DNA of 45,902 nucleotides from a virus (Duplodnaviria; Caudoviricetes), in the IMG/VR virus record IMGVR_UViG_3300041402_000369, positions 1 through 45,902 of that record; one strand, given 5' to 3'. Positions 2,378 through 33,132 of the stretch are shown piece by piece. The notes under the pieces are model-generated. The model was given only the letters and a program-made list of their open reading frames with translations, made no database searches and had not been told where the DNA came from. The position numbers and the translations under genes are program-made. Each line of letters starts with the position of its first letter. Position 1 is the first letter of the stretch.

Positions 2378-2401
2378 TCACCCCCACAGGGAGAGCATGA
2401 T

Positions 2402-2773
2402 ATGAGTAAGCATAAGTTTACGACGGGGCCGTGGAAAACGTGCCATAATGGGAAATGCAGGTGTAAGCAGATATGGTCGGAAACGGCAGACCACCCCGTC
2501 GCCACGATTGAAGCCGGAGAATGGGGCGACACATACCCGGCCATTAGTAAAGAGGGTAAGGCTGTTATTGAGTCAATACCATACGGTGAAATATCTGAAG
2601 AAACAGCCGAAGCCAACGCCAACCTAATAGCCGCCGCGCCTGAATTACTGGAGGCGTTAGAGAGATGTGAGGTGTTGGTCCGCTTAAGAATTGAAAACGA
2701 CATCGACGACGAAACTACCGCCGGGCATATGGCTCGCGCCGCAATCGCCAAAGCCAAAGGTGAAGTAAAATGA
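2402..2773 (+). CDS. conserved phage hypothetical (T.GPW...EANA.LIAAAPELLEAL family)
   Basis: characteristic N- and C-terminal motifs. Confidence 0.75.
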   Translation: MSKHKFTTGPWKTCHNGKCRCKQIWSETADHPVATIEAGEWGDTYPAISKEGKAVIESIPYGEISEETAEANANLIAAAPELLEALERCEVLVRLRIENDIDDETTAGHMARAAIAKAKGEVK

Positions 2774-3099
2774 AAAAACCAGACCTGATATGGCTAGAGA
2801 ATAAGAGGCCAAGTTTCGCATCACCGACCGGCTGTGAATTCTACACGTCAACAAACAAGAAGCTGTCAGATAATGACACCGAATACATCCGAGCCTCACT
2901 ATTAAAAGATGATAAATGGCTGGCTGATAATGGGTTGATGCGGGTTAAGCCCGTTAAATATGGTTGCTACTGTGATGGATCTGACAGTGATTATACATAT
3001 AATGACTGTGTGATAGATTCCGGTGACTACGAGCAATGCGTTTATGCCCGCACGGAAATGGCAAAAGAAGACTGCGAACATTGGCGTGAATTACCATGA
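2770..3099 (+). CDS. Cys-rich hypothetical protein
   Basis: 109-aa ORF coupled to both neighbours. Confidence 0.65.
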   Translation: MKKPDLIWLENKRPSFASPTGCEFYTSTNKKLSDNDTEYIRASLLKDDKWLADNGLMRVKPVKYGCYCDGSDSDYTYNDCVIDSGDYEQCVYARTEMAKEDCEHWRELP

Positions 3100-3232
3100 C
3101 CTGCCACTGCGCCACCTATAAAAAATTCATCCAAGCAATGGCCGCTGAGTTCGCCAAATACGGCCAGAATAAAACCGCTACATATTATAAACAGCAGTGC
3201 GATAAGGTGCTGGAGGAGACGGAGGAGAAATA

Positions 3233-3571
3233 ATGTCCGAACGAGATAAGTTTTTAAACGAGGCTATGGGTGAATGCTGGCATGTGGCAGGGCACCCGCT
3301 GTATGTTTGTAAATGTATGAAAGGCTGTGGTACGATACTTAACTCGCCAGCTTCAAAGCCTGTAAATCTTGAACTCTCAACGTGGCAAGGATTCGGGAAA
3401 CTCTGGGAATGGGCGATTGATCAGGAATGGTGGTGTGAGTTTGAATTCTCAAGGCCTGTAAATCCAGACCAATCTGATATTTTCGGCGGCACATTACAAG
3501 AAATACTACAGTCGTTAATCAACCCAGACCGATTCGCAACCGCAGTCTACGAATATCTCAAGGAGAAATAA
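3233..3571 (+). CDS. hypothetical protein
   Basis: 112-aa ORF with GGAG SD; preceded by a 45-aa ORF at 3096-3233. Confidence 0.65.
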   Translation: MSERDKFLNEAMGECWHVAGHPLYVCKCMKGCGTILNSPASKPVNLELSTWQGFGKLWEWAIDQEWWCEFEFSRPVNPDQSDIFGGTLQEILQSLINPDRFATAVYEYLKEK

Positions 3572-3573
3572 AA

Positions 3574-3765
3574 ATGTGTGATAAAGCCACAAGAGGATTT
3601 ACCATCAATATTGACAGCGACCCAGAATTAAGGGCAATGGATTTTCTGTCTCAAGTTATGGATGATCTGATCACCAACCACACTAACATGGGTATTGATG
3701 GCGATGTCGAGGATTCGTTTAACCGTATAACCAAATGGTTTGCGGATAAATACCACCGCGATTAA
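3574..3765 (+). CDS. hypothetical protein
   Basis: 63-aa ORF, AAGGAG SD. Confidence 0.6.
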   Translation: MCDKATRGFTINIDSDPELRAMDFLSQVMDDLITNHTNMGIDGDVEDSFNRITKWFADKYHRD

Positions 3766-3852
3766 TTAAAATAAACAAATCTATTGACAGCTAAACAATC
3801 ACCCTGTAACCTGACCAACGTACCTTGAAATTTAACCCCACAGGTGAATAAA

Positions 3853-4215
3853 ATGACTGAGTATATCGAGACAAGGCCGGAAGCAATCGAGGCGATTCAT
3901 AAGAGCATTTCCCACTGGAATGATATTTGTGCCGGGTGCGAGAGTGACTATAGCGCCAGCGGCTGTTATCTCTGCCTTGAATATTTGGAAGTACCCCTGA
4001 GCTGGCTGCCAGAATCATTATTCAGGTGCTTCGGCTGTCCAGTCAAGAAGTCGGGGAACAATTGTTATAATAAAAAATCTACTTGGGCAAAGTATCGAAA
4101 CGTGGCCTCGTATCATGGATATTGCGAGCATAGTTCAGCCAACGAAGCAGAAGCCATGCTAGAAGCCCTGGTAATGCTTCTCCCAGAATCAGAACGCGTT
4201 GTCTACGGTGGATAA
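3853..4215 (+). CDS. Cys-rich hypothetical protein
   Basis: ATG 3853 after AGGTGA SD; TTGACA-17 bp-TAACCT promoter at 3784-3812. Confidence 0.65.
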   Translation: MTEYIETRPEAIEAIHKSISHWNDICAGCESDYSASGCYLCLEYLEVPLSWLPESLFRCFGCPVKKSGNNCYNKKSTWAKYRNVASYHGYCEHSSANEAEAMLEALVMLLPESERVVYGG

Positions 4216-4216
4216 C

Positions 4217-4543
4217 ATGCCAACCAAATCAATGAACATGATCAATCACCGCCCAACCTTTAATCTTCTGGCCGCTATAATCAACTCAGCCGTCAAAGAC
4301 TTTAACGTGGGCGGTAAGCCACAGAGACAATCGGCGGCGGCATTTTTCAGGTCAGAGCGTTGCGCCTGGATGCTAAAAGCTGTCAATGCCACAGTGAGCG
4401 ATTTAGTTGAAAACCGGCTTAATGGTAATCCGTTTGATCTGGATTCACTGAAATCCAAAAAGCATAAAATGAAAGCCTATAAGCCGGGGAAAAATATTAA
4501 ATGGGATGGCCGAGAGATGACCGTCGCGGAATGGGCCGGGTAG
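4217..4543 (+). CDS. phage protein with a C-terminal HTH-like motif interrupted by TAG (frame stays open to 4618)
   Basis: LLAAIINSAVKD...AAAFFRS phage motif, then IKWDGREMTVAEWAG*IGIELGAFKERL. Confidence 0.6.
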   Translation: MPTKSMNMINHRPTFNLLAAIINSAVKDFNVGGKPQRQSAAAFFRSERCAWMLKAVNATVSDLVENRLNGNPFDLDSLKSKKHKMKAYKPGKNIKWDGREMTVAEWAG

Positions 4544-4625
4544 ATCGGTATTGAATTAGGTGCGTTTAAAGAGCGTTTAGCCAAGAAAGGCGTTTGCGCT
4601 GAGATATTTGAGGTTTAGAGTGTAT

Positions 4626-4752
4626 GGAGATGGTGGTGGAATTGGTAGACACAGCCGTAGGGAATCCAGTTTTAATCTGGAGCTAATTCTTTTGGCAGGG
4701 GGCGAACGAAAGATATCGTCATCCCGTGCGGGTTCGAGTCCCGCCCATCTCC
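4626..4752 (+). tRNA. atypical tRNA-like RNA (Leu-type D arm, elongated anticodon arm, UUA in the loop)
   Basis: acceptor GGAGATGG/CCATCTCC; D arm GTG-GAATTGGTAGA-CAC; T arm GCGGG-TTCGAGT-CCCGC; about 74 nt between D and T arms; no encoded CCA. Confidence 0.75.
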
Positions 4753-4784
4753 TCACAATTTAATTAACACAGGAGGATTAAAAA

Positions 4785-5039
4785 ATGAAGTACAAAAATG
4801 TAACGGTAATTGAATATTTTTTTGTTAGCTTGTGGGGAATGGTCGGAATATTAAACGGCGCAACAGGCAACAGCGTGGCTGCTGTTTTCGTAATAGTAAT
4901 TCTAGTTCAATGCCTTAAAGAGCAATCGTCAGAAGACCTCATGGGGGCGCAACGCAACTATATTAAAACCCTTGAAAAACATATTGAGTTAACTAAACAG
5001 GAGGCCGACCAGCCATGCCAAGAAAACGAAGAGAAGTAA
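4785..5039 (+). CDS. small membrane protein
   Basis: two hydrophobic segments, AGGAGG SD. Confidence 0.65.
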   Translation: MKYKNVTVIEYFFVSLWGMVGILNGATGNSVAAVFVIVILVQCLKEQSSEDLMGAQRNYIKTLEKHIELTKQEADQPCQENEEK

Positions 5040-5191
5040 TCAACGTATCAATCCACCCGGATAATTTTGATCAGGTCCACGACGTACTGGATGAGATTAA
5101 AGAACGACTGTTGCCAATTTCCGGTACGGTCTGCCGCCTGCTGCTTGAATTTGAAAAGCGCGGTTTTAAGTTTGAGAGTGAGGTGGAGTGA
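5015..5191 (+). CDS. possible RHH-type small DNA-binding protein (58 aa, not in ORF track)
   Basis: MPRKRREVINVSIHPDNFDQV...ISGTVCRLLLEF; AGGAGG SD. Confidence 0.5.
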   Translation: MPRKRREVINVSIHPDNFDQVHDVLDEIKERLLPISGTVCRLLLEFEKRGFKFESEVE

Positions 5192-5249
5192 GCAGGTTGC
5201 ATAGAATAGCTATGCTTATTTGTAATTTTGTAAACTAGGAGGTGGCATT

Positions 5250-5444
5250 ATGGGAACCGAAAAAGATTATCCGCTGACTATTGAGATTCTTTCTGATAAT
5301 CCATGTGGTGCCATGCTGGATAAAGGGCAGATTTGCAAGGCTAGATACTGGTCAGAATCCAACAGTGACTTCCTCGTTTTTGACGATGACACACCTAATG
5401 CTCCGTGGTCAATCTGCAACGAAGAAGCAAAGCTGGTGAAATAA
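5250..5444 (+). CDS. hypothetical protein
   Basis: 64-aa ORF, AGGAGGT SD. Confidence 0.65.
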   Translation: MGTEKDYPLTIEILSDNPCGAMLDKGQICKARYWSESNSDFLVFDDDTPNAPWSICNEEAKLVK

Positions 5445-5445
5445 A

Positions 5446-6450
5446 ATGCCAATCCCCACAGGAATAAGCGGCTCCCGCGCGGCAGCAATACTGGGCCTCA
5501 GTAAATACGCCACGCCTTTCTCGGTATGGCAAGACCTCATGGAGCAACGCCACGGCGAAGGATGGAACGCCAAGCAAGGTTATGCCTATGAGCCATTTGA
5601 GGGTAACACGGCTACCGAGTTCGGCCATGCGTTTGAGGATTCGATAATCAACCTCACGGAGAAAAAGCTTGATCATGTTATTCTCGACCGGGAGGCTGTC
5701 TTCACTGACGGGGGATTTACCACCTGTCACATCGACGGAATAATCAACCGTGACAAATTGTTCGAGGGCAAACACTGTAATTTCCGTGTCTTCGGACTTG
5801 ATTGGGGGGAGCCTGGAACTGACCGGGTACCGACCGCGATACAATGTCAAGTGCAGCACAACTTAATGCTGACCGGTCTGGAATCTGCCGTGGTGTCTGT
5901 CCTGGTAATACCGAAAACAGTTCAGGATTTCGAGGCTGAAGGCTGGCAAGCCCACTACGACACCCTCAACGGCGTTCACTTCCTGAAAAATCACGAGACA
6001 GACCAGATCATCGACCCCCTGACATGGGCCAAGACGTTCGCAGAAATCGGAAATTTTCATGTTTACAAGATCGAGGCAAGGCCGGATACCCAGAAATTAT
6101 TAAAAGAAATGTATTCAGATTTTTGGAGTCGGTATATTATCGGCGACGAGGTGCCTGATGCTGTTGATTATGACGATATTAAAAGTCAGTTTACCGCTCC
6201 GAAGGGGGAATTAGTAGTCACGGATAGCATTAAAGAAATGATTTCTGAATATTCTGGAATCGGTAAGGAAATAGGGGCCAGCGGACATTTAAAGAAACGC
6301 CAGAATTTTCTCAAAACTCAGATATTGAAATACGCCAAAGACGAAACAACAATCATTGACGATGACAGCCAAGAAAGAATAATATTTCTTGATAATTCAG
6401 GTAAACGGCTTGGCACATTTAATGGCGCAACCTTCCGTGCCAGAAAATAA
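5446..6450 (+). CDS. YqaJ-like viral recombinase exonuclease
   Basis: GISGS.AAAILGLS.Y.TP, GH.FE, HIDG, EGK and QVQH motifs; RecT downstream. Confidence 0.9.
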   Translation: MPIPTGISGSRAAAILGLSKYATPFSVWQDLMEQRHGEGWNAKQGYAYEPFEGNTATEFGHAFEDSIINLTEKKLDHVILDREAVFTDGGFTTCHIDGIINRDKLFEGKHCNFRVFGLDWGEPGTDRVPTAIQCQVQHNLMLTGLESAVVSVLVIPKTVQDFEAEGWQAHYDTLNGVHFLKNHETDQIIDPLTWAKTFAEIGNFHVYKIEARPDTQKLLKEMYSDFWSRYIIGDEVPDAVDYDDIKSQFTAPKGELVVTDSIKEMISEYSGIGKEIGASGHLKKRQNFLKTQILKYAKDETTIIDDDSQERIIFLDNSGKRLGTFNGATFRARK

Positions 6451-6454
6451 ACAT

Positions 6455-6483
6455 TTGACATTATAATGTCATTCAATTAAGGT
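6455..6483 (+). promoter_or_regulatory. promoter overlapped by a 16-bp palindromic operator
   Basis: TTGACA (6455)-17 bp-TAAGGT; perfect palindrome TGACATTATAATGTCA at 6456-6471. Confidence 0.65.
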
Positions 6484-6491
6484 ATAGATTA

Positions 6492-6656
6492 ATGGTTAGA
6501 ACACAGATTTACATCACAGAAGAACAACACAGGGAATTAAAAAGGATTTATGCCGAAACAGGGCAAAGAATTACCGAGAGTATCCGTCAAGCAGTTGCCG
6601 CTTATCTGGCTGGCCGGGAAGAAATGCTCAAAGTGCAAAAAGACAAAACCCTCTAA
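6492..6656 (+). CDS. CopG/RHH family regulator (54 aa, not in ORF track)
   Basis: MVRTQIYITEEQHRELKRIYAETGQRITESIRQAVAAYL is a classic RHH signature. Confidence 0.75.
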   Translation: MVRTQIYITEEQHRELKRIYAETGQRITESIRQAVAAYLAGREEMLKVQKDKTL

Positions 6657-7347
6657 TGATTTCCATCGCAACAAAACGACCAAAACCGGACTGCATTCGC
6701 AGTGCAAAGAATGTACATCAAAAGCCACAAAAGTATATCGCGGCAAGCATGTGGAGAGAATCAAGAAGGCAAGGGACGAAAACAGATGGAAGTACGCCGG
6801 AAGATATAAGGAAACAATAAAGAAGTGGAGAAAGAAAAACAAGAAGGAACTGGCCGAGAAGAAAAAAATATACTTTCAGGAAAACAAAGAAATTCTCGGA
6901 GAAAAACATAAGATTTATGTCAGAAAAAACAGGGAAGTAATCGCAGAAAAGCAGAAGGAATGGTCAGAAAAAAACCGAGACAAATTAAACGAATGGAACA
7001 GGAAATATGTTAAGGAAAGAGTTAAATCTGACCCAAACTTTAAAGTTTCAAAGAGAATAAGGTCAAGAATTTCAAATTCAATAAAAAGACAGAAGTCAAC
7101 AAAAACAACAATTGCCACTGAATTATTAGGTTGTTCTATGGATGAATGCAGACACCATCTCGAAAAACAATTTACCGCAGGCATGACATGGGATAACCAC
7201 GGCAAACACGGCTGGCACATTGACCACATAAAACCTTGCGCTTCGTTTGACTTGACTGATATAGAGCAACAAAAACAATGCTTCCACTACACCAATTTGC
7301 AGCCGTTATGGGCTGAAGATAACTTGAAGAAAGGTTGTAATTATTAA
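6550..7347 (+). CDS. HNH homing-type endonuclease with N-terminal Zn finger
   Basis: CSKC...CKEC, Lys-rich repeats, GMTWDNHG..WHIDHIKP...HYTNLQPLWAEDN. Confidence 0.85.
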   Translation: MPKQGKELPRVSVKQLPLIWLAGKKCSKCKKTKPSNDFHRNKTTKTGLHSQCKECTSKATKVYRGKHVERIKKARDENRWKYAGRYKETIKKWRKKNKKELAEKKKIYFQENKEILGEKHKIYVRKNREVIAEKQKEWSEKNRDKLNEWNRKYVKERVKSDPNFKVSKRIRSRISNSIKRQKSTKTTIATELLGCSMDECRHHLEKQFTAGMTWDNHGKHGWHIDHIKPCASFDLTDIEQQKQCFHYTNLQPLWAEDNLKKGCNY

Positions 7348-7369
7348 CCCCCCACAGGGAGAATTAAAA

Positions 7370-7546
7370 ATGGCTAAAGGTATTGCAATATTTTTTGGAT
7401 TCATCATCGCTTATGTGATCGGTATTCTTGTAATGATCCACGGGTGGGGATTGGAACCTCAAAGTTGGTGGATCATTATCGGTGGCGGTGTTTTTATAAA
7501 ACTGATTGTCGAAACAATGACCGCTATTGCCAAGGAAAGCAAATAA
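7370..7546 (+). CDS. small two-TM membrane protein (58 aa, not in ORF track)
   Basis: MAKGIAIFFGFIIAYVIGILVMIHGWGLEPQSWWIIIGGG...; GGGAG SD. Confidence 0.65.
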   Translation: MAKGIAIFFGFIIAYVIGILVMIHGWGLEPQSWWIIIGGGVFIKLIVETMTAIAKESK

Positions 7547-7572
7547 ACCACCAACCCACAGGGAGAAAAACC

Positions 7573-7767
7573 ATGACCCCAACAGAACAGCAGATTCGTA
7601 ATGTCAGGGAGAGGGAGAGACTTAATAAACATATTGTATGTTTATGGCTTCAGATTTCGGAAAAATCTGTTGAGTTTTTGACAGATTCGGACGCCGCAGT
7701 CTTTCAGGTGATCTCTGCCCACCCAGCAATTCAGAGCAAACTTAATACCGAGGAAACCAAACCATGA
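7573..7767 (+). CDS. hypothetical protein
   Basis: ATG 7573 after GGGAG SD; 3' part of track ORF 7444. Confidence 0.6.
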   Translation: MTPTEQQIRNVRERERLNKHIVCLWLQISEKSVEFLTDSDAAVFQVISAHPAIQSKLNTEETKP

Positions 7768-8624
7768 CACAGAAATCACTCGCAGTAATAGAAAAATCAG
7801 CAGCCGACTTTTTAACCGGCCTCAAGGCAACTCTGCCGACATATGCAATCAGGGAATATCGGCCTGAGACTTTCGTAAAATCGGCCATGATCGCCATTGT
7901 CAGTAACGACAAACTGCAAGAGTGCCTAACTAGCAATGAAGGTAAGGCCAGCCTGATTAACGCTATGAGGATGGCGGCGGGCAACGGCTTGAGCTTGAAC
8001 CCCCAAGAGGGTAAAGCGGCACTGATCCCGTACAGTAAGAAAGTCGGCCAGAATAAATGGGTACAGACGGCGCAATATCAAGTGATGAAGAACGGCCTGA
8101 TCGAGTTGGCCCTTGAATCCGGTAAAGTCGAATTTATCACCGCCGATACCGTCCGGGCTGGCGATAATTTCACCTTAACCAAAACCATGAACGGCGATGA
8201 ATACTTTTTCAGTCCTGCCCGTGTTGACCGTGGCGAGATTGACGGATTCTTTGCAGCCGTGAAGATGAAAGACGGCACTTGTCACACGGTTTACATGGCA
8301 AACGATCAGTCCTTGGAGCATAGAGAAAGGTTCAGCAAGAAAACAGCCATGCCGGTCGAGGGTTATGGCCAGAAGACGGCACTGAAACGGTTACTGAATA
8401 ACCTGCATATCAGCCCTGAATTGTCACAGGCGGTTGGGTCAGATAATATCCAAGAGGCTGAATTGCTTGATTATCCTGCCGAGAGTGGAACCGGAGCCGA
8501 AGACCTCGAAGCGGCGTTGAATGATCAGAAAGAATCCGGTCAGGCTGAAGAAGAAGCCCCGCCAGCGGAAGACAAGACCACCAGCCAGCCCGCCAAGACT
8601 GAAAATAAAGACTCGGTGATATGA
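7764..8624 (+). CDS. recT: RecT-family single-strand annealing protein
   Basis: L.ECL...SL..A...A..GLSLNP..G.A.LIPY, AQYQ...GLIELA..SG, KTALKRLL, acidic tail. Confidence 0.9.
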   Translation: MTQKSLAVIEKSAADFLTGLKATLPTYAIREYRPETFVKSAMIAIVSNDKLQECLTSNEGKASLINAMRMAAGNGLSLNPQEGKAALIPYSKKVGQNKWVQTAQYQVMKNGLIELALESGKVEFITADTVRAGDNFTLTKTMNGDEYFFSPARVDRGEIDGFFAAVKMKDGTCHTVYMANDQSLEHRERFSKKTAMPVEGYGQKTALKRLLNNLHISPELSQAVGSDNIQEAELLDYPAESGTGAEDLEAALNDQKESGQAEEEAPPAEDKTTSQPAKTENKDSVI

Positions 8625-9503: not shown

Positions 9504-9570
9504 TTAATTTCTGTTACCCTGTTTTTTCACCGCCGATTTTTAACCCCGCTCTCAACAGGACACCTACGCC

Positions 9571-13372: not shown

Positions 13373-13377
13373 GGTTG

Positions 13378-13647: not shown

Positions 13648-13648
13648 T

Positions 13649-14139: not shown

Positions 14140-14379
14140 ATGAGCAACGAACAGAAGATTAGGGAAATTATTGCCGATACATTGTGTGTCGATTTAGAGG
14201 AGGTTATCGCCTCAGCCAATCTTGTCGATGACCTCGGGGCCGATTCTCTTGATCTGGTCGAATTGATTATGGGCTTTGAAGAGGCTTTCGACATCGAGAT
14301 TGCCGATGAAGTTGCCGAGAAAATCACCAATGTCGCCGAGATTGTCAATCACATCAACGAACTCACGGAGAATATTTAA
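14140..14379 (+). CDS. acpP: acyl carrier protein
   Basis: 79 aa, acidic, DDLGADSLDLVELIM.FEE.FDIEI.DE.AEKI with intact phosphopantetheine Ser; GAGGAG SD. Confidence 0.95.
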   Translation: MSNEQKIREIIADTLCVDLEEVIASANLVDDLGADSLDLVELIMGFEEAFDIEIADEVAEKITNVAEIVNHINELTENI

Positions 14380-18769: not shown

Positions 18770-18860
18770 AATTAATTAAAATATAAGTTGACTTTTGTTT
18801 ATCGTTGTGTAATTATTGAGGTGTAATTTAAATACTAACCACCGCAGGGAGGAATTGAGG

Positions 18861-19352
18861 ATGAAAATCAGCGAAAAAGATATTGATAGATTCAAGGAGA
18901 TAATTGGCCCAGTGTGCAAAAAGCTTGACATTAACCAAGAAGAAATAAACGCGCTGGCTCTGGTCTTGAAAGAGAGTTTAGTCGGCAACCCCCAAAAAAT
19001 CCAAGGCTACACCGCCGAGCAATGGCAGGAGATTATTGATGGTGGGTACTTGTGTGAGTTTTCTATGGTCCCGCTTGGTATTGGTGGTCATACAAGAATA
19101 GGGGAGTTGTGTGTCCTCCACCATGCTGATGGTAAATTATGGTGGGCCAGCAAGAGAGATTCGAACCAGTGGTCACACTGCCGCCCAGCCCAATTAAAAG
19201 GCGTTATGCGGCCTATTTTTGTGGAGCCGGTTGATAAGGAGACTGCGCATTGCATGTTTTTCAATAAAGAAAGTTCGGTATTCAATCAAGCATGGGTATG
19301 GTGGAGAGAAAGAGAGGAATATCAACTAGCAACCAAATACATCGAGGTATAA
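18861..19352 (+). CDS. hypothetical protein
   Basis: GGAGG SD; TTGACT promoter-like element at 18788. Confidence 0.65.
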   Translation: MKISEKDIDRFKEIIGPVCKKLDINQEEINALALVLKESLVGNPQKIQGYTAEQWQEIIDGGYLCEFSMVPLGIGGHTRIGELCVLHHADGKLWWASKRDSNQWSHCRPAQLKGVMRPIFVEPVDKETAHCMFFNKESSVFNQAWVWWREREEYQLATKYIEV

Positions 19353-19356
19353 AACC

Positions 19357-20445
19357 ATGAAAACCGCACTCAACATCTTTCTCATCATCGCACTATTTTT
19401 ATTCACGGCCTGCGGAGGAGGCGGATCAACCGTAATATTACCACCAACCGCGCCACCACCAGAACCGGACCCAACCCCGGAAACCAGCCGGACAATTTTC
19501 GTCTATGATAACCAAGCCCCTGAAATCGGCACCTCAGACGGAGAATTTTACTATGAACTCGCTCAAGAGAAAGCAGCAAACGCCCGGAGCGGGTTTATCT
19601 CAATCGGAGATATTCTCCACGGCATTGACGACACAGGCGAATCAATTATCAGCCAACGCCTGCCGACAGCACCAAATAAAATAGCCATCTCAGGCCAAGA
19701 TATATGGTGTTTCAAAAATATTCACGATGCCATGTCGGGCCGTGATTATACCGAAATATGGCTCAATAATTCACAGTATGGCAACTGGACGGACAACCGA
19801 TACACCGTGGCCGAGGCGATTGTGACAGATTCAGGCGACATTATCGTGCTTGATACCGGCGGTAAATACCGGAACATCCTTGAACCGGCGATGGTGGTTA
19901 ATTATGCGGGGCATGGTGGGATATTGATCCACTCGATCGACGTTGCAACCCACAGGGCTAATATCGACGACACCCGCGTAGCATTTTCAACTAATTATTT
20001 TTTCGGTGCCAAGCAATGGGTTGAAGCTGACGGGGTTTACTACTCATGGAATGGCTACACATGGGATGGCACCACGTTAACCGAACGTGCCACGATCATG
20101 CACGAATTTGTCACTTCATGGTGGGCAGACCGGCCCGTGCTGGTTCCGGTTGGTTCAAGAATTGAGCATGGCGAGGCCGTCACGTATTGGATTGAGTGTA
20201 ACACCGGCTGGATGTACCGCCATACTCCTTCTATTGATAGCCTTGAGGTGGTCGCCAGGTTGTATCAAGGTAGTGGTGACCGGTCGGACGGATTGGCCGC
20301 TAGGGGTGAAATAAAGCCTGTGCTGGTTAGCGGATATGATGGTGATAATTTGTATTTCGGCTGGGACGGCACGATCTGGAAGTATAATTTTAATGATGCG
20401 CTGGTGAGTAGTTTCGCGGCTGGCGTTGAGATTTGGAAATTGTAG
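19357..20445 (+). CDS. lipoprotein with Pro-rich linker and beta-rich domain
   Basis: signal peptide with FTAC-GGGG lipobox, then PPTAPPPEPDPTP. Confidence 0.75.
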   Translation: MKTALNIFLIIALFLFTACGGGGSTVILPPTAPPPEPDPTPETSRTIFVYDNQAPEIGTSDGEFYYELAQEKAANARSGFISIGDILHGIDDTGESIISQRLPTAPNKIAISGQDIWCFKNIHDAMSGRDYTEIWLNNSQYGNWTDNRYTVAEAIVTDSGDIIVLDTGGKYRNILEPAMVVNYAGHGGILIHSIDVATHRANIDDTRVAFSTNYFFGAKQWVEADGVYYSWNGYTWDGTTLTERATIMHEFVTSWWADRPVLVPVGSRIEHGEAVTYWIECNTGWMYRHTPSIDSLEVVARLYQGSGDRSDGLAARGEIKPVLVSGYDGDNLYFGWDGTIWKYNFNDALVSSFAAGVEIWKL

Positions 20446-24122: not shown

Positions 24123-24218
24123 TTAATTATTCCTTGATAAAGACTATGGCACACCCAACAATGAGCAGCACCCAGAAAATACATCCTGTCCAGTAAAATA
24201 TATCGTGGATTATCGCCA

Positions 24219-24653: not shown

Positions 24654-24810
24654 TAATTAAACGCCTCATAGTCCCACGCATAATGCAAGGCTTTAGTCAT
24701 GTCATCATCGGTATGCGAATCTATTTCCTTCCGTAAATCTTCAACAGAAAGCGCATTTAGTTCTTGAAATACCTTCTCAATGGCTTCATTTAATCTGGTC
24801 TTATAATCAC

Positions 24811-25575: not shown

Positions 25576-26804
25576 GGCTCAACAATCTCCCCTTGAGTAT
25601 AAACAGTTGGCGGCACGAAACTCAGCACACTTGACCGCCCGTTAGGCCCTAAAACATACTCTACCCTATTTATTAAAAAATCAAAACCCTGCGGTAAAAA
25701 CATTGACTTACTAATAACCGTCACAATCTCATTCTCTGCCCACGGTTCGCCATTGTCCTTATACCAGCCTTCGACGGTTAACTGGAACGATAACGCATCA
25801 GCCAGAGTCTTATTCCTTGCCCACTCAGCAGCGGCCTTTAAATTACCTGATTGCGATTCGTTGGCGGTTATGTCCTTGAAGCGGGTACGGGGTACTTTCT
25901 GGTCGGTCGCTAATCCTTCTGAATTTCCCAATGGAGACTGTGACGTGGCACGGTAGACGTTAAACCGCTGCCTACCGTCGAACGCTGAACCCCAACCGGT
26001 AACGCCGAGGGTAACGCCTTCCTCAAGTGTTGCGACGGGTACGCCGTCTGTATTGGCTTGGGTGACGACTAAATCGGTGCCGGTATTGCAGGACAGTAAA
26101 ACTGATCGTTGACGGGCTAATCCTGACAGGAAAGCAAATATCCCTTGCCCTTTGGTGGCAACTACCCTGTCGAATTCCCCGCCGGTATCAGCCTCGAATA
26201 TCACGTTAAATCCAAGCGGCTTGACTATCTCTATTATCAGGTCTTTTAATGTCTTGCTATTGTGTTCATAGGGCGGCTTCCATGTCGAATCGACCAGATC
26301 AGCGGTTGCTGTTGCGCCGGACAGATTTAAAACAGTGCCTTGAGATATAACAGGTTCAGTCCCGTACAAAATGCCGGTGACTATCGGGGTGCTACCTATT
26401 GAGGCGATTGCTGGCGTGTAGGAATAAGGGGCAACAAGGTCGTCCAGACCGGTATCAATCCCAGGTTCCCACGGTATCGTACACTGAAACCCATTTGCCA
26501 CCAAGTCCATCGACCTGATTAAACGTGCCGCCATGGGCCTGATTATGCGCCCGTCAAGGTTTAAAAATATGCCGTTTTGGTCTTGGTTCCCGGCTGGTGA
26601 TGGGGGTAATTGTCGCTCCGGCAGAACGGGGATTAAAATTGTTTCGCCGGGGAATATTAAATCGGGGTTGCCACTGCGGAGAATAGTTTGGTTGGCGTTC
26701 CAGATACGAATCCAGAAAGTCGCGTCACCATAGGCGCGTTGGGCCACCTGTGACAGCGTGTTTTCATCTTGGATTGTGTATTGTTTGCCGGGGGTTGGTT
26801 GCAT
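25569..26804 (-). CDS. baseplate hub (Mu gp44-like) with N-terminal LysM
   Basis: YTI...TLS.VA..AYGD...W.RIW.AN......NPDLIFPG; true start likely ATG 26804. Confidence 0.85.
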   Translation of the reverse strand: MQPTPGKQYTIQDENTLSQVAQRAYGDATFWIRIWNANQTILRSGNPDLIFPGETILIPVLPERQLPPSPAGNQDQNGIFLNLDGRIIRPMAARLIRSMDLVANGFQCTIPWEPGIDTGLDDLVAPYSYTPAIASIGSTPIVTGILYGTEPVISQGTVLNLSGATATADLVDSTWKPPYEHNSKTLKDLIIEIVKPLGFNVIFEADTGGEFDRVVATKGQGIFAFLSGLARQRSVLLSCNTGTDLVVTQANTDGVPVATLEEGVTLGVTGWGSAFDGRQRFNVYRATSQSPLGNSEGLATDQKVPRTRFKDITANESQSGNLKAAAEWARNKTLADALSFQLTVEGWYKDNGEPWAENEIVTVISKSMFLPQGFDFLINRVEYVLGPNGRSSVLSFVPPTVYTQGEIVEPW

Positions 26805-26813
26805 TATCTGGGA

Positions 26814-26878
26814 ATTATAAATTATTTTTGGGAAAATGTAAAATAATGGTTGACTGGTTGTGTATCGTTGTGTAGTGT
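26814..26878. promoter_or_regulatory. back-to-back sigma70 promoters
   Basis: minus: TTTACA-17-TATAAT (26842-26814); plus: TTGACT-17-TAGTGT (26850-26878). Confidence 0.7.
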
Positions 26879-26920
26879 GTGGGTAATGAAGCAACAATTA
26901 ACCCCACAGGAGGAAGTAAG

Positions 26921-27247
26921 ATGTATAACGAATGGATTTCAGGCGGCAAAGTAGAATCTCATCCCAACGCTAACTATGTTACCTTTCACATGCGGCATGA
27001 GATCACAGGCCAGAGGGGTTATTATAGCACTGAATATGCAGTAGATGATAAACACCTTGGGCCGAGGGAAGTTCCATATTTAACCATGGTAACCATTAAA
27101 GCTATCCAGAGCATACCCGGTGTGCGAAAGGTTTTGGTTTCCCCATATAAAATAAGTGTAGTAAAGGCTGATGCTTTCACATGGGGAGAACTTTACCCCG
27201 CAATTAAACTTGGAATGTCAAAATACCTGCCTGCTCGGTATCACTGA
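26921..27247 (+). CDS. stand-alone NifU/Nfu N-terminal-like domain protein (moron)
   Basis: HPNAN..TF...I..IPGV..V......I.V.K.....W.EL.P.I pattern; AGGAGG SD. Confidence 0.65.
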   Translation: MYNEWISGGKVESHPNANYVTFHMRHEITGQRGYYSTEYAVDDKHLGPREVPYLTMVTIKAIQSIPGVRKVLVSPYKISVVKADAFTWGELYPAIKLGMSKYLPARYH

Positions 27248-27254
27248 CACCGCA

Positions 27255-27276
27255 CCCCCGGCTCACACAGCGGGGG
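27255..27276. terminator. hairpin closing the moron
   Basis: CCCCCG-GCTCACACAG-CGGGGG. Confidence 0.6.
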
Positions 27277-27279
27277 CAA

Positions 27280-28542
27280 TCACAAATAAACCACAACCTC
27301 TTTACCAACCGGCAACAAATAATTTTCATCACCGGTCAGCTTATTACTCGAATAAAACAAACTAATATTAAAATCATCCTCACCCGGCCCGCCATACTCC
27401 TGCATGGCAAGCATCACCGGATTAGCAGCCTCAGTCAAAATAATCCGCTTCTCAACCGACAAATCGAACACAGACTTAATCAGGTACGCCACGGTTAATC
27501 CGACCATCTGAGCCGCATCTGGATAGCTGTCTGACTGACTAAAATACGACCGGCTGAGCAATTCATCCGAATAAATCTCCTGAATCACATCCAACCCATT
27601 CGTAATCGTGTCAAATAACGCTAAATTGCTCTCGATGCTGTCAATAACCGCCTGCCTTGACGATAACGCCGAAGATACAGAAGCCACGCCAACAGCCCCC
27701 AAGGCAGCGGTCAGCCCCATTTCCTGAACAGCGGCGGTGTTAATACCTGCCGGTGAAGCCGCTTCCGGTGATATTCCTAAAATCAGATCGGCGAACCGGC
27801 TATAAGTCTCAATCTTGGCATTTATATCATTCACAACCAGATTAGGCAATGCAACCAACGCTTGAATTTGCCCCGCTATGGACAAAACGTCTATAGGTGA
27901 ATCAGCCAGCACCACATCAATGCCGCGCTTGATACTGTCGGCCTGTGCCTGTACCTCGGCCACCGTGTCGGTAATATTCGCCAGCGTGAGGTCGAACGCC
28001 GTGACGGTATTCTCAACCGCTGTTTTAAATTTCCCGGCTTTGTCGGCGGTGTCCAGTGACGTGACGTTAAATATTTGATCGGTTCCGGTGGATTGTAGGG
28101 CAATATCCTGCGCTTTGGCGAGTCCTGATAACTGCGCTGCTGATACCTCGCCTGAATCGCCGGTTACTTCAAGCCATTCGGTGGTGATTGTCGTGATATT
28201 CCCAGACGTGACCGGCTGCACTGCCTCGGAATATGATACCAATTGCAGGGTTTTCTCGCCTTTGAGTGGGTGAATTACTTGCCATGATCCGCGCTCGGCC
28301 AATGCCACCACGAATTTCTCAGAATCAAGATCGTTGTCCGGGCCGTCAAAATAGATTGTCAGGGGGTATGTGGTCGCGCCTAATTCTAAATCCTGAATTT
28401 TAACGCCTTTAACGCCTGGGGTCTTGAATATGCCGAGGTCTTTTTCTTGGCTGCGGGGGTTGCCGATCCATTTGGCCGTGAAGACAAGGCCAGACGGTGA
28501 GGTTAGCGTTATTTGTGGCTGTAGGCGGTCTTGGTAGCTCAT
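27280..28542 (-). CDS. tail/DNA circularization protein (Mu gp43-like)
   Basis: MSY.DRL N-terminus, QDL.LG motif, helical middle; synteny. Confidence 0.75.
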   Translation of the reverse strand: MSYQDRLQPQITLTSPSGLVFTAKWIGNPRSQEKDLGIFKTPGVKGVKIQDLELGATTYPLTIYFDGPDNDLDSEKFVVALAERGSWQVIHPLKGEKTLQLVSYSEAVQPVTSGNITTITTEWLEVTGDSGEVSAAQLSGLAKAQDIALQSTGTDQIFNVTSLDTADKAGKFKTAVENTVTAFDLTLANITDTVAEVQAQADSIKRGIDVVLADSPIDVLSIAGQIQALVALPNLVVNDINAKIETYSRFADLILGISPEAASPAGINTAAVQEMGLTAALGAVGVASVSSALSSRQAVIDSIESNLALFDTITNGLDVIQEIYSDELLSRSYFSQSDSYPDAAQMVGLTVAYLIKSVFDLSVEKRIILTEAANPVMLAMQEYGGPGEDDFNISLFYSSNKLTGDENYLLPVGKEVVVYL

Positions 28543-28543
28543 A

Positions 28544-29095
28544 TTATGGCCACTCCATTGGCGGCAATTCGCTGATAATTATCTCAAGAGTTGGCTCTGG
28601 CCTTTTGCCTGCTAAAAAATCATCTTGAATTTGAAACACGAGAGGCCAGATTGATGCTTTCCATTTACCAAACGCCTCGGCTTCGGCCCTAAACGGATTG
28701 TCATACCCGGCATAAGCCAGACAAGCCTCAGTTGGCGACATGTGCACAGTGCCATATTTTTTGGTTTTCGCTACATCATCAATAAACTGGTCAAGGCCAT
28801 CTTCGATTGCTTGAACTTTTTCGGTAAAAATATCTTCTGGATCTTTATCAACAACCAGATATGTCCATGTGGTGTCAGAAATTACAACCTTGCCTTGATT
28901 CTGTGTGGTGTGGTCAATAACCGGCGCAACATATAAAACCCATCCTGCTAAAATATATTGTTCATGTGTTGGGTTGATTACAGGCCCATCAATGCCGGGA
29001 ACATTAAGCCATTTATTCGAATCGGCCCGGCGTTCTTCGACAATTTCTGTTCTGTCCGCGCTTGGTAATCCGCATTTGTTCATATCATGCCCCAT
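28544..29095 (-). CDS. tail-associated protein
   Basis: D.VA....Y......YAGYDNPFRAEA.AF..W...PT......ELP...WP motif. Confidence 0.55.
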   Translation of the reverse strand: MGHDMNKCGLPSADRTEIVEERRADSNKWLNVPGIDGPVINPTHEQYILAGWVLYVAPVIDHTTQNQGKVVISDTTWTYLVVDKDPEDIFTEKVQAIEDGLDQFIDDVAKTKKYGTVHMSPTEACLAYAGYDNPFRAEAEAFGKWKASIWPLVFQIQDDFLAGKRPEPTLEIIISELPPMEWP

Positions 29096-29891
29096 ACTTA
29101 TCAGCGTAAAAAGATTCGACTCCAGCTCTCTCAGTAGGTGTCAGTAACTTATCAAAAATACATATCTCTGCTGCATCGGCATCCAGATCAAGGCCAGCCC
29201 CCAAGACATATCGGCCGATTAGTAAGCCAAAACTACTACTCCCCACACCCGCCGGAGCGTTTAAGGTTTCAGCACTGCCTACACTTGCCCCGTTTACTAT
29301 TATCTCTCCATCATCCCCAGCCCGGTTGTATCCATAGATAGCGGTCATTATCTGAACAGCTTGTGTGGTAATGCCACCTTCTGCAATGAGAGAAACAACC
29401 GCATTACCAGCAGACCCTCTGAAAATCCCTAAGAAAGCAGCATCGTCTAAGGGCGCACCGGTATCACGATAATAAAGGGAATAGCCACGACTAGACGAAC
29501 TAATACCGGCTGAATCTAAAATAGCTTGGTTATTACCCGGATGTTCGAGTCTTATTTTGAATACGACAAAAACAGTTGATTCTGCGGGTGAGAGGAATAA
29601 GAAATCCCATGTAGCTACCGCTTCCGCCGTTGTAAAAAATCCTGTGCTTCCATCGAATCTTACTACAGCCTCCCCGTTGAATTCGTTAGTCTCAAACGTA
29701 ACGCCACCAGTTGGATTAAAGGTGTGACCATTGCCGCTTGAGTCAGGCCACGCTGTATTGATAGTGTCACCATCATTAAAGCCTGTTATATTCCCGGCGA
29801 TAAGTTGGCAGAAGGGACTAAGGGTTGCCGGGTCTATGCCGCCGCCGCCGCCAGCACCGGCAGCCGCTAATAATGCAGTATTGTGGCCCAT
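29085..29891 (-). CDS. LamG/concanavalin-like virion protein
   Basis: W.DSSGNG, FDG, AEI.IFD..L...ER..VE.....KYG. Confidence 0.7.
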   Translation of the reverse strand: MGHNTALLAAAGAGGGGGIDPATLSPFCQLIAGNITGFNDGDTINTAWPDSSGNGHTFNPTGGVTFETNEFNGEAVVRFDGSTGFFTTAEAVATWDFLFLSPAESTVFVVFKIRLEHPGNNQAILDSAGISSSSRGYSLYYRDTGAPLDDAAFLGIFRGSAGNAVVSLIAEGGITTQAVQIMTAIYGYNRAGDDGEIIVNGASVGSAETLNAPAGVGSSSFGLLIGRYVLGAGLDLDADAAEICIFDKLLTPTERAGVESFYADKYGA

Positions 29892-30514
29892 TACCCCATA
29901 TCCCCCGGCAGGTTATAAAATTCTATCTCACCACTTGGGCCTTCATGCCCCTCTACTGCAAGACGATCTTTGCCACCACCAGAGGTAAATGATAGTCCGG
30001 CACTACCGGGAGTAACCGAACCGGCAGGCATTGTTACAGTAACGCCATCCCAGTCAATAGCATAGATAGTTATGCTCCATTCTAGGCCGCTTGCCGGGAT
30101 TCCAATTATCACCAAGGTAAAAGATGACCCGCTTGGCGTTATCGTGTAGCTGTACCCAAGCGATTGATCTATAGTGACAGTATCGCCGGTTCCCGGTGTA
30201 AAGTCTATATGCTTTGTCTGTAAATTTAATACCGTAATCAGCAGCCCTGCGATTGTGCTTTGAATATTGCTAATTTTCAGAAACACAGACAGCACAGAAT
30301 CAATTATCTGCTGCCATGTTGATTTTTTATTTGTGAATGAGTCGGCAGAATCACCGGTAATTGTCAGGTCTGCGGCAACCACCACGGCTTTTAAATCAAG
30401 GGTATCTAGGGACGATATTGTCCCAGCTGGCCCCCTCCCGCTAAAACGAAACCAGTTAAATGTTTTCTCAATACGGGTAAGGTTGCTATCTTTTGACAGT
30501 CTGACTATTTTCAT
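29891..30514 (-). CDS. putative virion accessory protein
   Basis: beta-rich, Gly/Thr-rich ORF in the tail operon. Confidence 0.5.
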   Translation of the reverse strand: MKIVRLSKDSNLTRIEKTFNWFRFSGRGPAGTISSLDTLDLKAVVVAADLTITGDSADSFTNKKSTWQQIIDSVLSVFLKISNIQSTIAGLLITVLNLQTKHIDFTPGTGDTVTIDQSLGYSYTITPSGSSFTLVIIGIPASGLEWSITIYAIDWDGVTVTMPAGSVTPGSAGLSFTSGGGKDRLAVEGHEGPSGEIEFYNLPGDMG

Positions 30515-30885
30515 TTTGTCGGGTCCGTTATGTTTCCTGGGATAGTGATTTTACCTGTGAAATTCTTAGCAGATTTACCGTCTGAAAATTCCTGGAACTG
30601 ATCCCATCTGGCCTCCGAAACCGTGAGTTCATTAATTACATCCTGATCCATGAAGCGATCATAAACCCAGATTAATTCGCCAAGCACTGTGGCCTGATAA
30701 ATCGTAAATTCAAATTCAGCCAACAGCGGTTCGCCGGGTGCAATTCTCACCTCTGCCCGGAAAGTGTCGCCAGAAATATCGGTAGGGTTGCCGTTGTCAT
30801 CTTCTATGAATTCAGTCTCAAGATAATCAGCACCCTTCTCAAGCACTTCATTTGATTCTACGGCTGATCCTGTATCGTTCGACAT
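30511..30885 (-). CDS. putative Ig-like fibre/baseplate adaptor
   Basis: GAD......D..G.P.DISG..F...VR...GKITI...IT pattern. Confidence 0.55.
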   Translation of the reverse strand: MSNDTGSAVESNEVLEKGADYLETEFIEDDNGNPTDISGDTFRAEVRIAPGEPLLAEFEFTIYQATVLGELIWVYDRFMDQDVINELTVSEARWDQFQEFSDGKSAKNFTGKITIPGNITDPTK

Positions 30886-30893
30886 ATTAACCT

Positions 30894-32453
30894 CTAATTT
30901 TGACCGAGTAACTGGGTGTTAAATCCGACCGGCCCCGTTGATTCTGCCGTTGTTCCGGCTGGGCCGTTTACATTTATTTCCCCACCAACATTTACATTGA
31001 CCTGTTGCGCTCTGGCGGCGGCTTCTTTTGCGTTGGGTGCTTCAACGTCAAGACCGGTGCCAAATTCATCGGTTGATTCAAGGCCGACACCAGCACTGCG
31101 GGCTTTTAGGGTTTCCCCGATAAATCCAATTGACGTGCCAATGGCTGTACCAATACCAGTTAACATGTTAAAAGCAAAACCAGCCACCTTGCCGATAATA
31201 ACCAGAGCGTCAATAATTATTGTCAAACCATCAACCATAGGCTTAACGTCAAAACCCCTGATTGCTTCGGTGAGGGAGTCAATGCCTTTTTTCCCATTAA
31301 CTTCAAAGGCGTTTAATATTTTAAAACCAGCCTCAGTTGCAGACGAACCAAGGGTTTTTAGCTTGGCGTCAATGCTTGTTCGCATAATTTCAGCAGTTAA
31401 TTCTGAGGTCTTACCAGCCCCTTTCAGCATCTTTTCAAAATCGCGCAATTCAGAAATGCTATCAGCGAGATTAGTCGCCCCGGCAATCGCCCGTTTCCCG
31501 AAAAGCTCATTGAATATTTTGGCGGTTTGAAGAGTTCCGAGTCCCTTGGTCGCAGCACCAACATCGGCGATAATATCGGTAAACTTCCGCATGTTGCCGG
31601 TGCCGTCGTCAATCTCAACATTGATATCCTTGAGCATTTTAACCGTCTTGGGGGTCGCAGCTGACAGGCGCAAGAATGAGTTTTTAAGGGCTGTCCCTGC
31701 TTCAGTTCCCTTGATACCTGAACTACCGAGTAACGCCGTGAGTGCTGCCACCTCTTCAAGTTCGATACCAAGAATACGGCCAATCGGGGCGGCTGTTTTC
31801 ATTGTGTCAAACATTGATTCGATAGTGACGTTTGCTGAGTTGGCAGATTTTACCAGAACATCATTGAGGCGGTTAAGATTGGCAATTTTCTGGGACGTAT
31901 CTTTGACATTAAGGCCAAACGCGCCAAGTAAATCGGATGATATGTCTGCTACCCTTGCGAAATCTTCCCCGCTGGCCGTGGCCAAGTCAATCATTGATTT
32001 GAGGCTACCCATTGCCTCGGTTGATGTGAAACCGGCACGGGCAAGGAAATCAAGGGCTTCGGCAGATTGCGCCGCCGTGAACTCAGTTGTAGCGCCCATA
32101 TCACGGGCGGACTTCTCAACTAATTTAAGTTGATCGTTGAAATTGGCCGCAGCCGGGCCGATATCCTTAAACCGGACAGTGGCACCGAGAGCGGCCTTGT
32201 CGAATGCGATAAATTGAGTGACTACAGAACCGACGCCTTGAGAAACAAGGGCGAGTCCACGGCTGATGCCAAGACCGGCGACAACGCCTTTTGTGACTGA
32301 ACTGAAACGAGAAGCACCACGGCTGGCTTTACGGAAACTTTTATCGGCACTGCGACCAAAACGGGCGGCGGCTCTCTCCATAAGAGAAAACCGCTTTGTT
32401 ACCCCGTCTTTCGCGGTAAATTTGGTGCCGACTTTTTTGTCACCGATTGCCAT
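30894..32453 (-). CDS. tape measure protein (TP901 family)
   Basis: ARDMGATTEFTA.Q.AEAL.FLA.AG, G.KG..AGT.L. Confidence 0.92.
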   Translation of the reverse strand: MAIGDKKVGTKFTAKDGVTKRFSLMERAAARFGRSADKSFRKASRGASRFSSVTKGVVAGLGISRGLALVSQGVGSVVTQFIAFDKAALGATVRFKDIGPAAANFNDQLKLVEKSARDMGATTEFTAAQSAEALDFLARAGFTSTEAMGSLKSMIDLATASGEDFARVADISSDLLGAFGLNVKDTSQKIANLNRLNDVLVKSANSANVTIESMFDTMKTAAPIGRILGIELEEVAALTALLGSSGIKGTEAGTALKNSFLRLSAATPKTVKMLKDINVEIDDGTGNMRKFTDIIADVGAATKGLGTLQTAKIFNELFGKRAIAGATNLADSISELRDFEKMLKGAGKTSELTAEIMRTSIDAKLKTLGSSATEAGFKILNAFEVNGKKGIDSLTEAIRGFDVKPMVDGLTIIIDALVIIGKVAGFAFNMLTGIGTAIGTSIGFIGETLKARSAGVGLESTDEFGTGLDVEAPNAKEAAARAQQVNVNVGGEINVNGPAGTTAESTGPVGFNTQLLGQN

Positions 32454-32631
32454 TTTTCGCCCGCGCTCCGTTTAACTCATTAACAACCGTTCTTTGTTTG
32501 ATAAAGTACCAATCGGCCCAGTATTTTAACTCTGGGAAATCCATTGACTTTATTTCGCTCGGCATAATCCCATCATCACGGCAAGCGGCCATGAGGTAGT
32601 CAACTTTAGGGATTATACCATTCCGAAAATC
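32440..32631 (-). CDS. -1-frame extension of the tail assembly chaperone (gpE+E'/GT-like)
   Basis: -1 frame reads ...YLMAACRDDGIMPSEIKSMDFPELKYW..., filling the gap to the TMP. Confidence 0.7.
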   Translation of the reverse strand, partial: DFRNGIIPKVDYLMAACRDDGIMPSEIKSMDFPELKYWADWYFIKQRTVVNELNGARAKNGNR

Positions 32632-33050
32632 GTGCTGACCCTCCTCATTACCGTAAGATCGGCACCATCAAGGGCAGTCAGGTCTTTGATCTCAACCCCT
32701 GACATCGTGGCCATGAATTGCATGGTCCGGGTCTGATCGTCTCCACCACCTTTTTCCATCGCAATCCTTGACAGCGTGATTTTCTGCCCAACATAAGAAA
32801 TATCCTTAATATTCCCGACCGGATGCACGAGATGTTGGGTCACGGTTGCCGTGCCATCGACATTGATTTCAAGCTCGGCCCGCATGATGGCCCGGACAAG
32901 GGTGTTGACAAATGTTTGTGCGGCGGCCTCACCCTGATCGGTTTCGATGTCGGAGAAGTCAAGGCCATAAAAATCAAGCCATGAGTTAATCTGAGCCTTT
33001 GCGGACTCCTTTGAAATCTTGCGTTTTTTCGGTTCTGCTTGGGTGGTCAT
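32613..33050 (-). CDS. tail assembly chaperone
   Basis: between tube and TMP; C-terminal L..LDGADL. Confidence 0.75.
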   Translation of the reverse strand: MTTQAEPKKRKISKESAKAQINSWLDFYGLDFSDIETDQGEAAAQTFVNTLVRAIMRAELEINVDGTATVTQHLVHPVGNIKDISYVGQKITLSRIAMEKGGGDDQTRTMQFMATMSGVEIKDLTALDGADLTVMRRVSTIFGMV

Positions 33051-33058
33051 TTCATTAT

Positions 33059-33132
33059 CTCCCTGTGGGGGTTTTAAAAATAGCGGGCTTCGTCTGCATC
33101 ATCCCCACAGGAATTAGCAGACAGCCACCCGC
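33059..33132 (-). promoter_or_regulatory. hairpin/pseudoknot overlapping the chaperone RBS
   Basis: GCGGGT/GCCCGC and TGTCTGC/GCAGACG stems; loop CCTGTGGGG complementary to the downstream CCCCACAGG(GAG). Confidence 0.65.

Follow-up and report, generated by a model that had tools for sequence, protein, structure and literature searches.

A conserved hairpin in a phage tail operon with a guide loop complementary to a recurrent ribosome-binding-site box: probable pairing in cis and candidate action on early genes

Among the antisense RNAs of phages, the CI RNA of P4 is named beside C4 as a close system. The C4 RNA of phages P1 and P7 joins a specificity segment to a segment that covers the ribosome-binding site (RBS), as passages of PMC5320573 describe it. 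Another case is the start-associated sequence (SAS) of cluster K mycobacteriophages and cluster EF Microbacterium phages, whose function is stated to be unknown in passages of PMC3203893 and PMC7302621, and a third is repZ of the IncI/IncB plasmids, in which a hairpin loop pairs just 5' of the downstream Shine-Dalgarno (SD) sequence and an upstream stop codon lies close by (passages of PMC8053102). Here, we compare these systems with a virus record of 45,902 nt (IMGVR_UViG_3300041402_000369, analysed over its full length and referred to as the window), in which a repeated 9-mer box, CCCCACAGG, precedes several start codons and a hairpin of the tail operon carries the antisense word in its loop. 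As an RNA element, this hairpin is real and uncatalogued, with well-supported pairing in cis and an exchangeable guide; a trans regulon built on it is credible but unproven.

The hairpin (33082-33133, minus strand) lies within a 158-nt interval between a tail tube-like gene (33209-33583, minus strand; 124 aa), which is named only from its position after the sheath gene and has 48 database matches but no PHROG or Pfam match, and a tail assembly chaperone-like gene (32613-33050, minus strand; 145 aa), which sits between sheath/tube and the tape measure gene and has a weak, below-cutoff match to Phage_TAC_7 (E 0.006). It consists of a 6-bp lower stem (33133-33128 with 33087-33082), a purine-rich internal loop, a 6-bp upper stem (33122-33117 with 33097-33092) and a 19-nt loop, and the fold z score of the 66-nt hairpin stretch is -3.7. 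The guide loop (33098-33116, minus strand) comprises a 5' C/U part complementary to the SD, a variable middle and a G-run, and contains the antisense 9-mer (33111-33103). The initial annotation had rightly assigned this antisense copy to the loop of a tail-transcript hairpin, but the loop is only partly open: in the predicted fold, a 5-bp apical stem closes within it, leaving only UGUG exposed, and opening this stem would cost about 6 kcal/mol. Behind the stem follows an A/U linker with a run of five U (33071-33081, minus strand), a possible site of weak termination or cleavage, and then the box and SD of the chaperone-like gene (33059-33070, minus strand), which can form 11 contiguous pairs with the loop (predicted duplex -22.2 kcal/mol) and covary with it. 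The antisense copy thereby stands 33 nt upstream of the sense copy at 33070 on the same transcript, a relation that had been overlooked, and because the two are so close on one transcript, the simplest partner of the loop is in cis.

Relatives were gathered by sheath and capsid searches, and tube-chaperone intervals were extracted from 83 of 105 sequences. Thirteen of these intervals, picked out visually, have the hairpin architecture, in nine distinct variants; a descriptor scan across 1,844 starts confirmed part of this selection but did not recover G001 and G003. With segment borders set by ourselves, pairing is complete in the upper stem (54 of 54 cells, with several types of pair in each column), in the inner lower stem (36 of 36) and in the 8-bp helix of loop and box (72 of 72), two G-U pairs, in L117 and L164, being included; arms swapped between phages reach 65%, 75% and 85% pairing. 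Four loop types are represented, namely those of the window, L048 and L116, and a GUGG type with six variants. Cognate loop-RBS duplexes average -24.7 kcal/mol against -16.0 kcal/mol for 42 cross-type pairs, with some overlap. Furthermore, the 5' loop segment is able to pair with the SD in all nine variants, often across a bulge of 1-4 nt, and tracks changes of the SD. The element is identical in L001 and L098, and in L098 it is unchanged while tube and chaperone are only 49% and 44% identical to those of the window. Covariation of this extent makes loop-box RNA pairing in cis very probable. The initial annotation had offered RNA pairing as one of two branches and proposed to look for covariation in relatives; the pairing has stood, but the partner that emerges is the adjacent chaperone RBS, which it had listed as one more target.

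Broader searches for the element recovered few relatives. A pattern scan for two inverted 9-mers returned 40 stretches with 2 true relatives, the rest being mostly plain hairpins, a scaffold scan returned 42 stretches with 3 true ones, and metagenome and genome scans gave 3 loci each, those from genomes being spurious. A covariance model built from the six GUGG-type variants gave 7 matches in 100 sources and none in 33 records, but it recovered only its own variants, missed the window, L048 and L116, and is too narrow for claims of absence. As separate observations made by eye, the intervals of L049, L052 and L099 contain a second hairpin class with a short loop, for which 4-6 bp of pairing just before the SD is possible across an A/U linker, and L104, L105/L106 and L170 have more anti-SD-like loops. 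In L153, L177, L193, L197, L201, L203, L205, L212 and L214-L216, a gene of about 260-280 codons is inserted between tube and chaperone.

With regard to known systems, the hairpin works like the C4 antisense RNA but is not a member of that family. Both are phage RNAs cut from a longer transcript (a step that we infer for the tail operon), in which one segment is specific for bases just upstream of the RBS and another occludes the RBS, and in both the specificity segment varies between phages; here, this segment is complementary to bases upstream of the RBS and changes together with its target, in cis and, for two loop types, at distant sites. However, C4 is built of three stem-loops, uses two separate loops, is processed by RNase P and has an immunity role, whereas both segments here share one loop of one hairpin in a tail operon, with a cis target 33 nt away. 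The fold is a single hairpin, and the Rfam C4 models matched neither the window at gathering score nor the region around the element at E<=5; no Rfam family at all matched the window, L115, L181 or L141 at gathering score, the only hit near the element being a snoRNA match at E 0.25. Anti-SD small RNAs (sRNAs) with C-rich loops, such as RsaE, carry a fixed generic motif and not a phage-specific variable box, and in the operator pseudoknot of phage T4 gene 32, a structured RNA near the RBS controls initiation but needs the gene 32 protein. A 2024 preprint reportedly concerns a phage sRNA acting on host genes. Our literature search found no description of the present element, and five motif strings were absent from 6 supplementary files of a ten-thousand-candidate catalogue (PMC10690425); three further files of that catalogue, 1, 2 and 4, lay outside the search, such that the motif is possibly among its candidates.

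As in IncI/IncB repZ, the loop pairs just upstream of an SD. There, however, the pseudoknot switches translation on, and a distinct antisense RNA blocks it (passages of PMC8053102), whereas here the loop is able to mask the SD itself and further boxes occur at other places in the genome. In 10 of 10 loci, the stem is preceded by a stop codon at a distance of 6-13 nt, which is 9 nt in the window, where this spacing is kept by an inserted 17-codon mini-open reading frame (mini-ORF) with a strong SD (33143-33196, minus strand). Such spacing hints at coupling to upstream translation, but it is also usual for any intergenic hairpin. An activating pseudoknot after the repZ model, in which a ribosome stopping upstream would permit the helix, only the box would pair, the SD would stay exposed, and the extra boxes would be incidental or copied, could draw on this spacing, on the repZ precedent (passages of PMC8053102) and on the apical stem, which, instead of the SD, could maintain the C-run of the 5' loop part. 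We consider it improbable, as the 5' loop segment tracks the SD and is able to pair with it in all nine variants, the box helix of the window includes SD bases, the chaperone is translated from a bare RBS in most relatives, and the early boxes would be left unexplained. Repression rather than activation is the outcome that we regard as probable.

The mini-ORF is an optional insert, missing from L001 and skipped in one contig, and may possibly encode a stalling or signalling peptide. Optional mini-ORFs behind the tube gene in the window and in L049 (2621 onward) share their last six residues and show four synonymous codon differences. With respect to the linker, three variants have U-runs of 5, 5 and 4 after the stem, and the other six have 0-3 (no more than 1 in L115, L181 and L200); the conserved U-tract of an intrinsic terminator was not found across variants, and a consensus terminator scan calls none at the linker. 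Around the element, a scan for promoters yielded 6 weak sites where 2.3 were expected, a result that we do not count as evidence.

The 9-mer CCCCACAGG occurs seven times in the two strands of the window (2382, 3836, 5454, 7350, 26902 and 33103 on the plus strand; 33062-33070 on the minus strand), exactly where the initial annotation had placed it, compared with a mean of 0.26 and a maximum of 2 in 100 dinucleotide shuffles. Five copies stand before start codons, one in codons 3-6 of yqaJ, and one is antisense on the late strand. The excess is confined to exact copies, because with one mismatch allowed the count is 12 against 8.6 expected. From the end of the box to the ATG, the spacing is 8-11 nt at all six pre-start sites measured (the five exact ones and the 8-mer at 7555), and the position of the box is non-random relative to starts: CCCACAGG lies within 40 nt upstream of 5 of 79 non-chaperone starts, whereas 419 words of the same composition average 0.043 and none reaches 5. 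The motif is in this sense start-specific and not equally common elsewhere, although a further CCCACAGG copy, previously overlooked, lies in mid-coding sequence at 19949. CCCCAC is the commonest hexamer before AGG in the leaders of the window (4 of 91).

On the plus strand, the box precedes ORF 2402-2773 (phrog_1273, unknown function; box at 2382-2390, predicted duplex with the loop -24.9 kcal/mol), ORF 3853-4215 (no family; 3836-3844, -19.7), ORF 7370-7546 (no family; 7350-7358, -22.2) and, in the tail region, a lone inverted gene at 26921-27247 (26902-26910, -22.7), and as an 8-mer it precedes ORF 7573-7767 (7555-7562, -19.1), whose stop overlaps the start of a RecT-like gene (7764-8624). 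The best duplex of 80 starts (-26.6) is formed by a 14-nt perfect loop complement at 5452-5465, in codons 3-7 of a YqaJ/RecE-like exonuclease gene (5446-6450), and the seven strongest loop duplexes among these starts are the seven box sites. Near copies reported earlier at 7555, 4768 and 18840 are all present; of these, the weak ones before ORF 4785-5039 (4768-4776, -13.4, mostly an ordinary SD) and ORF 18861-19352 (18840-18848, -17.6) were not counted, as their pairing is no better than that of the mid-gene copy (18840 equals the 19948 copy).

Early-type genes of the window lie on the plus strand (RecE/YqaJ exonuclease, HNH, RecT, primase, methyltransferase, acyl carrier protein and helicase) and head and contractile-tail genes on the minus strand, and two boxes are near recombination genes, one within yqaJ and one heading the ORF that overlaps recT. 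To ask whether boxes track the loop, we fetched whole records, with start counts based on a simple purpose-written gene caller. Besides the window, G001 (100% complete) and G010 (81% complete) are near-complete hairpin genomes, while G002, G003, G011 and G012 are partial hairpin records with mostly late genes. Each of the three near-complete genomes has extra copies of its own box at early-gene starts (5 in the window, 1 in G001 and 2 in G010): in G001, its box CCCCACCAC precedes gene 11794 and an 8-nt partial match precedes the first early gene, and in G010 the box precedes genes 38736 and 41905. Genome-wide, these boxes amount to 4 and 9 copies in all, the others not at starts, in records that are GC-rich. 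The window box stands at no start of G001 or G010, and theirs at no window start. Over G001 and G010, the 9-mer reaches a score of 3, and none of the other listed words of the same composition exceeds 1; in both genomes, the box heads an overlapping gene chain ending in DNA polymerase, with the boxed genes sharing no family match.

Among 16 hairpin-less records with 1,069 leaders, CCCACAGG was found twice and CCCACCAC never, and eight more records with 460 leaders had no box, four of these showing no tube or chaperone and hence having an unclear hairpin status. Two CCCACAGG in 1,529 starts of 24 other records do not fit the suspicion, raised initially, of an ordinary host RBS context. A motif-free word-sharing test, for which the G001 start was corrected by hand, placed the chaperone leader in the top 3%, 6% and 3% in the three near-complete hairpin genomes, but at 14-100% in 20 records with a chaperone and without the hairpin; in four partial hairpin records it ranked at 33-90%. 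At yqaJ, the probability of the codon choice given the residues is 0.013 for the 9-mer and 0.002 for the 14-mer (window codon use, post hoc), and only codon choice is informative there because homologs share the residues PTGI. No close YqaJ relative was found in viral contigs (best 43%), and contigs aligned to the yqaJ box gave no clear signal. Opening would cost the loop about 6 kcal/mol and the targets 3-7 kcal/mol, after which the predicted duplexes are still favourable, loop topology being ignored in this calculation.

Taken together, we put trans action on early genes at an even chance. The initial annotation had supposed that a late RNA silences early RBSs in trans; of this, the tracking of loops by boxes holds in two more genomes, G001 and G010, at the level of sequence and, with the window, for two independent loop types only. 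Several points weigh against it. G001 and G010 share both loop type and early module, such that their boxes are possibly inherited, and their GC content of 58-60% exceeds that of most controls; the partial records G002, G003, G011 and G012 have no extra 8-mer box at any start, and the loop types of L048 and L116 fall outside the early-gene comparison. PTGI occurs in 16 of 63 YqaJ homologs inspected, and the yqaJ match is therefore partly forced by the protein. Most relatives have a short bare RBS for the chaperone instead; the hairpin is present in just 13 of 83 intervals, and the family can therefore do without it. With a U-run of at most 1 in L115, L181 and L200, it is hard to see how a free hairpin would be released in G001 and G010, and in intact mRNA the cis target should outcompete all others. 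Moreover, a helix of 11-15 bp inside a closed loop is topologically hard.

The same caution applies to the origin of the extra boxes. Flanks on the 5' side are loop-like at 16 and chaperone-like at 11 of 44 positions, and on the 3' side at 13 and 23 of 48, and these counts do not separate pairing from copying; two of the copies match the chaperone leader over 14-15 nt, a stretch that contains a C outside the pairing, and relatives have leaders duplicated over 19-40+ nt whether or not they possess the hairpin. The hairpin might act in cis only, and the extra boxes might be chaperone-leader copies spread by short-homology recombination, with the hairpin making this leader a frequent donor. In line with this, YqaJ and RecT are both encoded by the phage, identity over 14-15 nt links the chaperone leader to two early leaders, long leader duplications are found in G005, G006, G008, G011 and G020, the RBS of L164/L165 has been taken over by an inserted gene with a similar SD word before the chaperone, and L098 is mosaic around its identical element. 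Nevertheless, copying seems rather unlikely to us, as exactly the loop-paired core is kept while 5' flanks differ, unlike in the duplications of 19-40+ nt, and the shared leader is that of the chaperone in all 3 hairpin genomes but in none of the 20 others. In addition, the 3' side of the yqaJ copy tracks the loop rather than the leader (5 against 1 of 7), and the G010 site 41885 pairs slightly better than the cis site. As further observations on leaders, G011 contains an exact duplicate of about 70 nt of a promoter-plus-RBS leader before two different genes (2693-2762 and 26508-26577), and partial boxes lie upstream of the gene after the major capsid gene in three phages with the GUGG-type loop, G003 (8458), G011 (9698) and G001 (36074), but not at that place in the window.

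The box also invites comparison with SAS, which likewise is an over-conserved word fused to the SD before several non-structural genes, with one antisense copy in four cluster K genomes (passages of PMC3203893 and PMC7302621). Here too, an asymmetric word at the RBS position of several non-structural genes is conserved beyond the need of SD pairing. The two differ in that SAS has 13 bp, 10-19 copies and an upstream extended element (same passages), whereas the window box has 9 nt and 5-6 copies and differs between relatives; no upstream inverted repeat of the extended-SAS type occurred in 30-nt upstream contexts or among the top repeat families, which were viewed without a dedicated search. 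Furthermore, five cluster K genomes keep 13-15 SAS copies while the antisense loop drifts, but here the boxes change with the loop. In phage Anaya, the lone antisense SAS is located in the loop of a hairpin, within an element that 178 records share, with fold z scores of -0.4 and -1.1, and a general SAS-antisense rule was rejected, as in other genera the loop changes and SAS is fixed. This intergenic element (L256 34760-34990; Anaya 59759-59989) is unannotated in its 178 cluster K records, has a conserved promoter-like start, several stems and an anti-SD-like but variable loop, and is a candidate non-coding RNA in its own right.

The other branch of the initial annotation, a protein-binding box resembling CsrA/RsmA sites, is not supported, since box and loop change together across relatives; the conserved part is a C-rich box tracking the loop, and the 3836 copy lacks GGA. 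Binding sites for a CsrA-like protein or a phage factor, or a preference of the host for certain RBS contexts such as has been suggested for start-associated sequences, would accord with the GGA that follows the box in most copies and with the fixed register to the start codon of mostly small non-structural genes, as in SAS (passages of PMC3203893). We hold such readings to be very unlikely, because the box varies among related phages in step with the loop and is without GGA at 3836; in addition, no CsrA or RNA-binding family was found among 44 poorly annotated ORFs or 78 ORFs, host factors lying outside this search. Even less plausible is that a dimeric protein recognises an inverted repeat in the DNA: of the two copies near 33062-33111, one is indeed inverted relative to the other, but the spacing is variable, G-U pairs are tolerated, and both enclosing stems covary.

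In the explanation that we propose, the 9-mer is the target box of the conserved tail-operon hairpin, whose loop would repress the chaperone RBS in cis and early genes late in infection; judged from sequence, this combined proposal is as likely to be right as wrong. The apical variable bases (UGUG in the window) would seed on the box, the C-run of the box would then displace the weak apical stem of the loop, and the freed UCC segment would cover the SD. In read-through transcripts, pairing would occur in cis, as a pseudoknot or a refolded form, and would lower the output of the chaperone and of coupled downstream genes relative to sheath and tube. Trans action requires an end or cut in the A/U linker, since the hairpin is freed only by termination or cleavage: an abundant sheath-tube message ending or cut there would carry the hairpin without its cis target, free for early messages. 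In the window, these would be the message of the YqaJ exonuclease and, by coupling, of RecT, and hairpin-ended late RNA might damp early recombination and replication genes during packaging.

The window sequence is almost wholly confined to one marine-sediment DNA run, from which the record may derive; no RNA run was among the listed runs matching it, no cultured relative was found (best sheath match 28%), and the record is estimated to be 93% complete. Apart from the hairpin, the phage carries an acyl carrier protein gene (14140-14379, plus strand) and a tRNA-like sequence of 126 nt (4627-4752, plus strand) with two long inserts in the anticodon and variable region, which scored 33.1 bits as a tRNA with permissive filters but was missed by ARAGORN and the fast Rfam scan. 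The inverted gene in the tail region belongs to a self-contained cassette (26833-27275, plus strand) with a promoter-like stretch resembling 45564-45605 and a terminator resembling 575-594; the gene has a weak Nfu_N match below cutoff, and contigs of run X1 omit or replace the cassette. An unrelated 64-kb record (G063, L040) has 13 CCCCACAGG copies, the inspected ones not being RBS-like.

The cis element alone adds an uncatalogued phage RNA motif with clear covariation and points to control of the tail chaperone at initiation, beyond the known frameshift. Somewhat more tentatively, we picture a re-programmable one-hairpin guide that gates the chaperone in cis and shuts off recombination and replication modules in trans, with lineages rewriting guide and boxes together. 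If so, a lytic-type phage would possess a late-to-early translational switch, its structural operon carrying an off-switch for early genes, and natural guide swaps would ease testing. It would also provide a mechanism for one class of start-associated repeats, and repeated RBS words, which have no known role according to passages of the SAS papers (PMC3203893, PMC7302621), would gain an RNA partner that can be tested. The 50-nt hairpin with its swappable guide is, finally, a compact part for synthetic biology.

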